Shown one piece after another: positions 50,832-56,044 of a stretch of 64,000 nt of DNA. The stretch lies in the NCBI GenBank assembly GCA_038231135.1, contig JBBRLX010000015.1, positions 23,982-87,981 on the forward strand, written 5' to 3'. Both the position numbers and the translations under genes were made by a program. This DNA is from Candidatus Eiseniibacteriota bacterium (GTDB lineage: Bacteria; Eisenbacteria; RBG-16-71-46). A model generated the notes under the pieces. That model ran no database searches and was not told the DNA's origin. It saw nothing but the letters and a program-made list of their open reading frames with translations. Each line of letters starts with the position of its first letter. The stretch's first letter is position 1.

Positions 50832-51656
50832 TCAGCGTGCCGCGAACGCCACGGCCCGCCTCGCTCTCGCCGCCCCGGTTCCGACGGGGTGGGACCGCAA
50901 CTCGCGGTTGCCGGGATCGACCTGGTAGGCCCAGTCCATGACGACCCGGCCCGAACCGATCGCGGATACCCGGAACTTGGCGTAGTGAACGTCGTGGGTC
51001 TCGACGACGTAGCAATGACCCACCACCAGTTCGACGGCGCCGCTCGGCGCCCAGCCCGTCGTGGGCGCGAAGTCGATGGCATCGAGCGTGGCGGCCTGGC
51101 CGGCATCCTGGATCTCGGTGTCGACGAACGGCGCCACCATGTGGTCGACCCCGCTGGCGCGGACGTAGTAGACGTCCACCGCCGCATTGTCGAACGCCAG
51201 CACGGAATGGCTCGCGAAGTTCCAGCCGCCGGTGGCGGGGGTCACCGCCGCGTCCGTCAGTGTCTGATCGAAGCCCTCGGGACGCGGCGTGTCGAACACC
51301 GTCTCGCTCGACAGCGCGCTCTCGTTGCCGTGCTGGTCCACCGCCGCCACGGCGAAGTACCGGGTCTGTCCGTTCGCGAGGCCTTCGACCGTAAAACTCG
51401 TACCGGTCGTGGAGGCGATCCGGTCGTACGGGCAGGACTGGCCACCGGCGCACGGCGCCTCGTAGATCCGGTAGGCGGCGAAGTCCGATTCCGTATTGGC
51501 GAGCCAGTGCAGATAGACCCGCGTGTCGCCGGTGACGGTGAAGAAACCCCGCGGAGCGGCGGGGGGTACGAGATCCTTCGGAGCCGAAGTGTCCCTGCAA
51601 CCCGCAATCGCCGTGGCCATCACGAGCACGCCGATGAATCTCCCGAACCCGTTCAT
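50832..51656 (-). CDS. Lipoprotein with fibronectin type III domain
   Basis: Lipobox IAGC; PPAAPRG..W..N.ESD...YRIY, GLANGQT.YFAVAAVD..GNESALS. Confidence 0.85.
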   Translation of the reverse strand: MNGFGRFIGVLVMATAIAGCRDTSAPKDLVPPAAPRGFFTVTGDTRVYLHWLANTESDFAAYRIYEAPCAGGQSCPYDRIASTTGTSFTVEGLANGQTRYFAVAAVDQHGNESALSSETVFDTPRPEGFDQTLTDAAVTPATGGWNFASHSVLAFDNAAVDVYYVRASGVDHMVAPFVDTEIQDAGQAATLDAIDFAPTTGWAPSGAVELVVGHCYVVETHDVHYAKFRVSAIGSGRVVMDWAYQVDPGNRELRSHPVGTGAARARRAVAFAAR

Positions 51657-51715
51657 GCGCGATCTCCCCTGGACCTGTCGCGCGCGGAAGTGCGCGCCGT
51701 TGCGCCGGGCCTAGC

Positions 51716-51730
51716 GCAACGCCCGTGCCA
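51716..51730 (-). promoter_or_regulatory. Sigma54 promoter of the lipoprotein operon
   Basis: TGGCACG-GGCG-TTGC, full consensus, ~60 bp before ATG. Confidence 0.85.
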
Positions 51731-51878
51731 CGGAATCCACGTTACCGCCATTCGGGGAAACCACGTAACGCGTTACGTCCCAACAGGGCGACACGAGGGC
51801 ACGGGTCTTTGGGACGGATCCTGCGTGCGGCGCGGTCTCAGGTGTGCATGGCGCGCAACACTGGGCACCTGGACGCAC

Positions 51879-55500: not shown

Positions 55501-55679
55501 GGCAGGTCGGCGCCGAGTTGCCTCAGCGCCGATCGGTACTCGTCGGCGGCGCCGGCGAAATTGTCCGCGGCAAGATGGAGGTCGCCGATGGCTTCATGCT
55601 GCGGCGCGTCGTCCCGGTTGGAACGCCGTGCCTGAGTCGCATCGGGGGGGATCGCTCGCTGCACGTTGTGAACCCTCAT
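52581..55679 (-). CDS. Sigma54 enhancer-binding protein: TPR array + GAF + AAA+ + Fis HTH
   Basis: ~500 aa of TPR-like repeats (ALNNLGLVYK, NLGLIRY); GAF (SLVCVPL..VGMVYVD..F...EL.LL); GETGTGK, GAFTGA, FLDEI, WRGNVREL, NKARTARELGLS. Confidence 0.95.
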   Translation of the reverse strand: MRVHNVQRAIPPDATQARRSNRDDAPQHEAIGDLHLAADNFAGAADEYRSALRQLGADLPLERCRLLERLAEACRRRGDFDAALTALREARAATRLLMDPVWSARIAARFANVHVDRGLYRKSIRYATYAYLVLRGSAEHQVVGQVTVTLGLCCARLGRSQEAIDWLQSAAATFRRIDDTEGLVSALNNLGLVYKNLREWREATRYIEQALRLDERAGLYARMRGHNQNLGLIRYRLGQWDLAEENFRQSLRIAREIGHPMGEAMALLALGMMCRRRRQFERAEEHFKRALELALTCGAHREQVLAREFLGELALDRGDAAAATSMMTPALDDARLLAPQGDLVAELETRLGIAAMRLGRLDEAQSRLVRGAMISERIGDRVEQAITERALGRLDGLRGNAAGFETKTRAAAQVFDQLGETYELATTLAGWGEGLLELPKSVRLRVPLEPVADAAKRAAALFRELGVIALAAETLLTLARLESEREHYDQALALLEKAEHWLTDAGSAETEDRAKALRRELEHQYVAVSLSTCNEFRALEEANRLFRETSDMDGLLAGTVRLAVESAGGDRGFVAFSHGAGRLEVVAQYGVGRDRCRRILRVIESVGGNRIAENGPIFSSRVTADPRFGPALTEALENVGSLVCVPLNFPSQSVGMVYVDRLNDNLLGPFRQRELNLLAVLANSAAVAIVEAQRSVLLAENKELRDKLKPIPGVERVITDSREMTAILKLIAKVGDSSATVLFMGETGTGKGLLAQVVHEISNRRDRPFVQVNCAALPEQLLESELFGYVQGAFTGAVRDKGGLFEEAEGGTIFLDEIEKVPETVQAKLLHVLDSGEIRPVGATRSRRVDARVICATGCDLRERIQKGRFLEDLYYRLNDISIRVPALRERREDVPVLAQHFLTYYSKQMEKRIGGFTPEVMKAFLSNEWRGNVRELEKTVKRLVVLADDGDTLDATMLPAEMREAPVVSADREAGLNLRSNVSELERKMIAQALERHHWNKARTARELGLSYPTLLSKIRTFKIERTSTAR

Positions 55680-55753
55680 GTTGGATCAAACACAGCCCAC
55701 CCGGCCGGTTCGTTCCGGGTCGACGTAAGCGAGATGTAGGAGCAGTCTGACCG

Positions 55754-56044
55754 CTACCAGCCCGCTCCCAGCAATGGCAGTCGAGAAACCCTCAGATACA
55801 GCAGGTAGCCGTTCGGCAGTCGCACGATGATGCCGCCGCCACCGTCGTTCCGAATCAGGTTTCCACTTCTCCCGGCGTCACCGCTGTCCGGCTCTCCGCT
55901 GTTGGGACCGACGATGGGTCTCACCAGCCGCGCGGACGTGACGTCGCGCAAACCACGCGCTTCCGCCCGCCCGTGCACGGTGGCGATCATCGCCACAGCG
56001 AACAGGACGACTGTGATCAGGAGCCTGTTGCGAACTTTGAGCAT
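55754..56044 (-). CDS. Small secreted protein / candidate signalling-peptide precursor, 96 aa
   Basis: GAGGGGAG RBS; Sec signal ending RAEA; polar core PNSGEPDSGDAG; aromatic/hydrophobic tail. Confidence 0.7.
   Translation of the reverse strand: MLKVRNRLLITVVLFAVAMIATVHGRAEARGLRDVTSARLVRPIVGPNSGEPDSGDAGRSGNLIRNDGGGGIIVRLPNGYLLYLRVSRLPLLGAGW

Follow-up and report, generated by a model that had tools for sequence, protein, structure and literature searches.

RRNPP-type receptors, which bind peptides inside the cell, are known from Gram-positive Firmicutes, with a signature of receptors of 250-500 aa and validated precursors of 21-50 aa (PMC10075063). In the RRNPP(A) pairs (Rap/Phr, NprR/NprX, PlcR/PapR and AimR/AimP), a small Sec-type precursor adjoins a cytoplasmic TPR protein, and the core is repeated in some precursors (PMC10075063). 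Sigma54 activators with an RNA output are likewise described. In the LuxO-Qrr system of Vibrio, the sRNA made under the control of a sigma54 activator base-pairs with the mRNA of that same activator (PMC2632942). In the CbrB-CrcZ system of Pseudomonadaceae, a long RNA lies directly 3' of its sigma54 activator gene, with conserved synteny (PMC8871633), and in the PxrR-Pxr system of myxobacteria, an NtrC-like activator lies immediately 5' of a stem-loop RNA with a functional first loop, in a host lacking Hfq (PMC5684412).

The locus reported here would work like an RRNPP pair wired to an output of the LuxO-Qrr/CbrB-CrcZ type, a design that the sources available to us describe only in pieces and in other bacteria. 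The window, i.e. the whole 64,000-nt stretch of DNA analysed, is contig C15:23982-87981 of source genome G000, and the named relatives of its activator are from Candidatus Eisenbacteria. The initial annotation had listed a peptide gene, an activator, terminators, promoters and a folded RNA unit, all of which are present on the minus strand (Table 1). The peptide gene, the activator and the RNA (RNA I) constitute one conserved, phylum-wide regulatory unit. Gene order around it is conserved through the class (rlmN / arsR / ppx / gap / activator / gap / Fn3 lipoprotein / DUF4384), despite the loss of single flanking genes at some loci; the arsR-like and Ppx/GppA genes upstream and the divergent rlmN (window 56193-58836) remain in synteny with it throughout the class. 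The host genome encodes RpoN, CsrA, five family-5 solute-binding proteins, about 20 sigma54 activators and LpxC, from which it is assigned as a diderm, while Hfq was not found in this 93% complete genome.

Table 1. Features of the peptide/activator/RNA I locus, in window coordinates.
Feature	Position	Strand	Support or detail
Sigma70-type promoter of the peptide/activator operon	56168..56196	-	Sole sigma70-like match in 49000-58000
Leader site 1, C-rich, complementary to RNA I 5' hairpin loop	56134..56144	-	35/38 leaders
Leader site 2, complementary to RNA I 5' arm, weaker	56103..56111	-	23/38 leaders
96-aa precursor (signal peptide, GEPD core, aromatic/basic C-terminal segment)	55754..56044	-	
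GEPD core of precursor, residues 50-53	55886-55897	-	
1032-aa TPR-GAF-AAA+-HTH sigma54 activator	52581..55679	-	Pfam
Intrinsic terminator 3' of activator	52536..52565	-	Hairpin 52544-52565
Predicted enhancer of RNA promoter, A/T-rich palindrome of TATCAA-N5-TTGATA type	52460..52476	.	29/34 family spacers
P1, sigma54 -24/-12 promoter of RNA I	52273..52287	-	51/53 ortholog spacers
RNA I, ~385 nt	51878..52261	-	Fold, covariation
RNA I SL1, G-rich loop	52242-52258	-	
RNA I SL2	52127-52216	-	Conserved loop 52171-52183
RNA I SL3, variable	52014-52099	-	
RNA I SL4	51927-52004	-	G-rich loop 51964-51975
RNA I terminator hairpin	51887-51916	-	
Conserved enhancer-like element upstream of P2, type unlike that of P1	51835..51860	.	
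P2, sigma54 promoter of lipoprotein operon	51716..51730	-	
Fn3-domain lipoprotein, first gene of syntenic operon	50832..51656	-	Pfam
Later genes of lipoprotein operon	50325-50825, then DUF4384 gene 48880-50328		

The activator contains TPR repeats, a GAF domain (residues 551-689), a sigma54 AAA+ domain (718-883) with the GAFTGA motif at 792-797, and a Fis-type HTH (984-1021), with no receiver domain detected by Pfam, in agreement with its earlier description as a 1032-aa protein with intact GAFTGA and a TPR plus GAF input. With Walker motifs and a C-terminal HTH accompanying the GAFTGA-containing AAA+ domain, and RpoN present in the genome, it has the characteristics of a sigma54 enhancer-binding protein. 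Residues 25-536 are modelled as an all-helical TPR array (pLDDT 94.9), whose nearest solved structures, among the matches listed, are LGN/Pins, TONSOKU, AfsR and MalT-type repeats, with MalT domain III reaching a target TM of 0.79. The match to RapF is weak (E 8.7e-11, rank 60) and falls below generic TPR proteins, and no Rap-type chain is among the Foldseek matches listed; because RapF ranks so far below the other repeats, no specific kinship with the RRNPP receptors is indicated. In the ESM Atlas the activator falls into generic TPR/GAF clusters.

The 96-aa precursor ORF has a ribosome-binding site, a basic N-terminus, a hydrophobic stretch called as a signal peptide by our own hydropathy rule, and a GEPD core. 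It has no Pfam or NCBIfam family, and its ESM Atlas matches are solely unnamed Eisenbacteria clusters, all below 0.9. Its orthologs range from 82 to 127 aa, most being slightly longer than 100. The TPR-GAF region matched in all 61 genomes searched, and 60 loci were taken, comprising 54 best-hit orthologs (4 of them split or cut by contig ends) and 6 long paralogs. The small ORF in the upstream gap combines a ribosome-binding site and an export signal with a core of the G[DE]PD type and a C-terminal segment of aromatic/basic character. A first pattern located this precursor at 58/61, the misses being two variant cores, recognized by eye, and one truncated locus; a single scanner, its motif loosened after the positives had been seen, placed it 5' of 59/60 activator loci, all of them related and within one phylum. 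For a negative control, 80 ordinary sigma54 activators were drawn from a genome-collection scan with the C-terminal alignment, which had matched generic AAA+ patterns. Nine had too little room upstream, and at the 71 with at least 700 bp the same scanner found no precursor (0/71), bearing out the synteny that had been put forward as a check. An RNA-first search of metagenomes approached the unit from the other end, giving 120 loci (80 with flanks, partly redundant); where there was enough DNA, the activator lay upstream in 57/58, the precursor upstream in 30/32 and the Fn3 gene downstream in 54/59. Peptide gene, activator and RNA I thus travel together, from whichever end they are sought.

Compared with the RRNPP signature, the receptor carries TPR repeats, the precursor has a Sec signal by the hydropathy rule and falls in the propeptide range of 10-100 aa, and the two genes lie on one strand with a gap of 74 bp. 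Peptide-type ABC binding proteins exist in the source genome. Unlike the RRNPP(A) receptors, however, the protein here has 1032 residues and its N-terminal TPR array feeds a GAF and a sigma54 AAA+ domain; the precursor is about 100 aa with a conserved C-terminal segment, the host phylum is diderm, the output is an RNA, and the matches listed indicate no specific structural kinship to Rap-type TPRs. Because of the size and architecture of its receptor, the unit is not classed as an RRNPP member.

Within the precursor, the core has D in 56/58 and P in 53/58 sequences with variable flanks, and is near-identical across the phylum. The core is repeated in some precursors (L068, L080 and L324), as expected if a peptide is excised; at L324 two precursor genes stand in tandem, and one of them holds three cores. 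The receptor paralogs, of about 800 aa, fall into further clades, and those lacking a GAF-sized region have their own precursor in 20/23 cases in clade II (two more having variant cores) and 12/16 in clade III, as do 6/6 other long paralogs, while none was found at four long TPR proteins without an AAA+ match in the fetched stretch. Ten residues are kept across the three receptor clades (N189, W200, R301, E308, D342, E346, R350, D380, E383 and R389), and the groove-type Asn/Arg positions N189, R301, R350 and R389 are common to all three. By the TPR register, some conserved residues are predicted to face the groove, where the arginines would suit an acidic core. Clade III activators (G000 C23:26192-28926; L313-L327) are found in variable surroundings, and most lack a sigma54 box downstream; in some the GAFTGA is altered, and an aromatic residue often precedes the core. 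A Cloacimonadota contig (L096), outside Eisenbacteria, encodes a 1423-aa frame with a TPR-profile match and a sigma54 AAA+ domain.

From this pairing of precursor and receptor genes, and by analogy with RRNPP systems, the core peptide is somewhat favoured as the TPR ligand. When a 32-residue window containing the core was co-folded with the TPR region, the score was 0.01 (mark 0.32), a result that is counted neither way. Several observations count against the ligand step: the TPR array is closer to the repeats named above than to Rap proteins, the GAF domain provides an alternative input, a four-residue core holds little information for paralog specificity, the export signal and the C-terminal segment account for most of the conservation of the precursor, and the flanking genes of orthologous loci include no processing protease or importer. 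The small protein might instead be a membrane-associated partner or a co-expressed product, with the TPR-GAF region sensing a metabolite or another protein. The repeat domain of MalT senses a metabolite or protein, and the likeness of the array to MalT domain III, together with the GAF domain and the conserved aromatic/basic C-terminal segment, is consistent with such a role, but we consider it unlikely, since the clade II and III receptors without a GAF-sized region still keep a precursor, the precursor is absent from all 71 non-TPR or other activators, and the short core alone is invariant.

Under the favoured ligand reading, peptide binding, re-import and cell-to-cell signalling would follow the RRNPP precedent. 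The same ligand and receptor could also act within one cell, the precursor reporting on export or periplasmic proteolysis rather than on neighbours, with the signal being either precursor that has stayed unexported or a fragment that cycles from the periplasm. Sec export in this diderm host delivers a peptide to the periplasm, a sigma70-type promoter precedes the operon, envelope genes are syntenic, and the core is nearly uniform across the phylum, unlike strain-specific pheromones. The repeated cores, tandem precursor genes and scattered, variable clade III copies, however, resemble signalling cassettes, and this cell-autonomous version is judged improbable.

Downstream of the activator, P1 departs from the sigma54 consensus at two positions and is therefore not significant alone (three matches at one mismatch in the window, against 4.0 expected). 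Its conservation is what distinguishes it: the -24/-12 box anticipated downstream of activator homologs occurs in 51/53 ortholog spacers, and P1 and P2 together in 48/53. Of the palindromic UAS-like sites noted in the initial annotation, the A/T-rich one about 190 bp upstream of the P1 box is conserved, its position being kept in 29/34 family spacers, whereas the other palindromes upstream of P1 are not the conserved element. From this adjacency, the activator very probably drives P1 through the enhancer at 52460-52476. In some precursor leaders (window 56044-56167; L032 and L034) there is P1-palindrome-like sequence, a possible autoregulatory site in a minority, with a mean score over precursor leaders of 2.4 (sd 4.7; shuffled -0.7).

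The initial annotation also had the activator driving the lipoprotein operon from a second consensus promoter. That promoter, P2, is real in that it is the sole exact sigma54 consensus match in the window, and the operon is syntenic, with P2 conserved in 48/53 spacers and the Fn3 gene following in most RNA-first loci as given above. Its enhancer is of another kind, however: P2 regions score -2.2 with the P1 motif (shuffled, -1.7) and 8.2 with the conserved motif of P2 itself, which reaches 2.9 on P1 regions; self-scores are inflated as the motifs were trained on those same sets. Since the P1 motif is lacking at P2 and roughly 20 sigma54 activators are encoded in the genome, the most parsimonious view has this activator driving the RNA and another one the operon, which is probably just a neighbour; a direct output through P2 seems quite improbable. 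The clade II promoter carries a third enhancer motif.

The 385-nt unit under P1 folds better than 100/100 shuffles (z -3.28). Its 5' hairpin begins 28-30 nt from the start of the P1 box in 48/52 units, and the SL4 loop is present in 43/52. Two-sided pair changes affect 13/16 pairs of SL4 (43 loci) and 5/26 pairs of SL2 (32 loci), with covariation scores reached by 0/500 shuffles; this is supportive but overstated, since the structures were derived from those alignments, which took in only the loci having each motif, and the sequences are kin. The promoter plus 5' signature of RNA I occurs in 167/206 phylum genomes (a tally that includes the unpublished G038), nearly always once, the reversed pattern occurring in 1/206; G000 itself is missed because its box begins with C. 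Fold, covariation and synteny together establish the folded, ORF-less unit picked out at the outset as a conserved structured RNA. A conserved small ORF in it is unlikely, because the spacings between motifs are spread over all three frames. In one soil RNA library, two contigs that differ by 2% from the window lie on 51875-52190, a weak hint of expression given that the contigs provide neither strand nor ends; RNA run X1 has no contig cover over the promoter region 52228-52698, which carries no weight.

The window spacer and nine related loci gave no Rfam match at the gathering score and none to the Qrr, CrcZ, CsrB and GlmY models, and homology to Pxr was discarded when the Pxr model gave nothing above the cut-off genome-wide. 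The circuit resembles LuxO-Qrr in combining a sigma54 activator with an RNA predicted to pair with its own operon message, but LuxO is phosphorylated via membrane kinases and Qrr is short and Hfq-dependent, while no Rfam Qrr match and no Hfq were found here; going by the length of Qrr, RNA I is 3-4 times longer. CbrB-CrcZ shares the position of the RNA directly 3' of the activator and the conserved synteny but has a two-component input and, in CrcZ, a Crc/Hfq decoy, whereas the evidence here points to base-pairing by an RNA without an Rfam match. PxrR-Pxr shares the activator immediately upstream of a stem-loop RNA, but has a two-component input and an RNA of about a quarter of the size.

The predicted pairing with the operon's own message involves a C-rich motif near the 5' end of the transcript, complementary to SL1 in 35/38 loci of the two closest families. 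An equivalent -35/-10 layout precedes most family-level orthologs of the peptide/activator operon. Net binding of leader site 1 to SL1 is predicted at a mean of -8.8 kcal/mol, and leader site 2 shows covariation (p=0.02) on 28 related loci. The deviant SL1 variants of three distant loci, L078, L079 and L080, each rank first of 19 with their own leader, whether ranked by RNA or by leader. In 35/45 comparisons, predicted binding was stronger for the cognate leader than for the Fn3-upstream control; L076 was left out since its promoter lay under the scan threshold, its leader having a 10-bp match by eye. No convincing leader site was found in nine distant loci (L068-L075 and L077), of which L072 and L077 have deviant SL1, and leader pairing beat shuffles at the 5 of 100 level in just 23/51. 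On balance the complementarity argues that the RNA I 5' hairpin probably pairs with the leader of the peptide/activator mRNA. As for its sign, in many leader folds the motif is paired to the ribosome-binding region, which the RNA would free, giving autoinduction, and we lean slightly to activation over repression; predicted accessibility of the ribosome site, however, shifts only marginally, from 0.33 to 0.36, (up in 14, down in 6 of 38).

As to other targets, the Fn3 leaders have no conserved SL1 site. The complement of the SL4 loop ranks 1/42 permutations in 1635 roughly called leaders (27 against a mean of 12) but is not counted, because near-identical words rank close behind; SL1 seeds and a short C-rich loop motif showed no genome-wide enrichment in the same leaders. 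The leader of an HU-like gene (G000 C21:60363) carries the complement of the SL4 loop just 5' of its ribosome-binding site.

A second RNA accompanies a paralogous circuit outside the window. The clade II activator gene (G000 C15:15827-18250) is followed by a sigma54 box and RNA II, a conserved unit of about 470 nt (about C15:15055-15524) with a loop of the anti-Shine-Dalgarno type, an A tract and a pair of exposed C-rich motifs. The whole clade II circuit (G000 C15:15055-18801; relatives L293-L312) comprises a precursor, a TPR-AAA+ activator of about 810 aa, its own enhancer motif and RNA II; in most cases a gene for a small cytochrome-c-like lipoprotein or tRNAs come after it. The RNA II core 19-mer occurs in 81/206 genomes and in 69/88 of the source family (a tally including G038), and six RNA II loci had no Rfam match except a flanking tRNA. 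RNA II carries the reverse complement of the RNA I SL2 central loop over 11-15 nt in 24/27 family genomes (imperfect in the other 3/27), with a net energy after opening both sites that is negative in 24/24 (mean -10.4), while the match is absent in 5/5 sister-family genomes. The corresponding 12-mer occurs twice in G000. The SL2 loop is invariant in 71/74 genomes and has one extra base in 3/74; in all three insertion genomes RNA II has gained the matching base as well, in one case by way of G.U pairs. For G013 the matching base was predicted beforehand, and held, via G.U pairs; a further prediction, for G040 and G043, failed, RNA II being without the site there. As the three insertion genomes form one clade, they represent one insertion with two kinds of compensation. 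Within the source family, it is thus fairly likely that the RNA I central loop pairs with RNA II, in which case one circuit would titrate the other.

RNA I might alternatively be mainly a protein decoy of the CsrB/CrcZ type, with complementarities that are incidental or reflect DNA sites in opposite orientation. Its size and position match those of CrcZ-like RNAs (PMC8871633), and CsrA is encoded in the genome. The short C-rich loop motif, present twice in 32/32 RNA II and at least once in 30/38 RNA I, is exposed in the SL3 loop of RNA I and in RNA II, and no target, pairing or protein explains it. This decoy role nonetheless appears rather remote: there are two conserved GGA-containing G-rich loops only, not the many repeated GGA hairpins of a CsrB/RsmZ-type RNA; leader and SL1 change together in three lineages; the G013 G.U variant keeps the RNA pairing but not a DNA site; and Hfq was not found in the 93% complete genome. 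At L092 (G000 C1:164849), csrA is followed by a small ORF that we take to be FlgM-like, suggesting a flagellar context for CsrA.

Base-pairing being preferred, the anatomy, synteny, RNA structure and complementarities observed lead to the following model. Cleavage of the exported precursor likely yields a short G[DE]PD peptide. This peptide likely comes back into the cytoplasm to bind the TPR array; transcription of RNA I from the adjacent P1 is then likely turned on by the activator, and RNA I is predicted to act by base-pairing with its own operon leader and with RNA II. Taken jointly, a peptide-gated activator controlling a base-pairing RNA is our best explanation, and one we hold to be about as apt to fail as to stand. 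The initial interpretation is partly supported: peptide gene, activator and RNA do belong together, peptide sensing is proposed by analogy, and quorum sensing in the sense of cell-to-cell action would be a further step. It did not include the predicted leader pairing or RNA II. The most far-reaching version appears doubtful at present, namely that Ca. Eisenbacteria possess intracellular peptide quorum sensing in a diderm, in which TPR-sigma54 activators have their own exported G[DE]PD pheromones and two long structured RNAs, one feeding back on its own pheromone/receptor message, base-pair and so compare two peptide signals without Hfq.

No description of the system was found in the mostly open-access literature, as far as its available text extends, on RRNPP with sigma54/TPR, Eisenbacteria, TPR enhancer-binding proteins, sRNA sponges and surveys of structured RNAs. 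Whatever the role of the peptide, the analysis adds two uncatalogued RNA families of 300-500 nt, with mutation-ready predictions of RNA-leader and RNA-RNA pairing in a lineage where Hfq was not found. If the model is true, enhancer-binding proteins would gain a new class of input in the form of a sigma54 ATPase gated by a peptide, and RRNPP-like signalling logic would extend to a diderm phylum.
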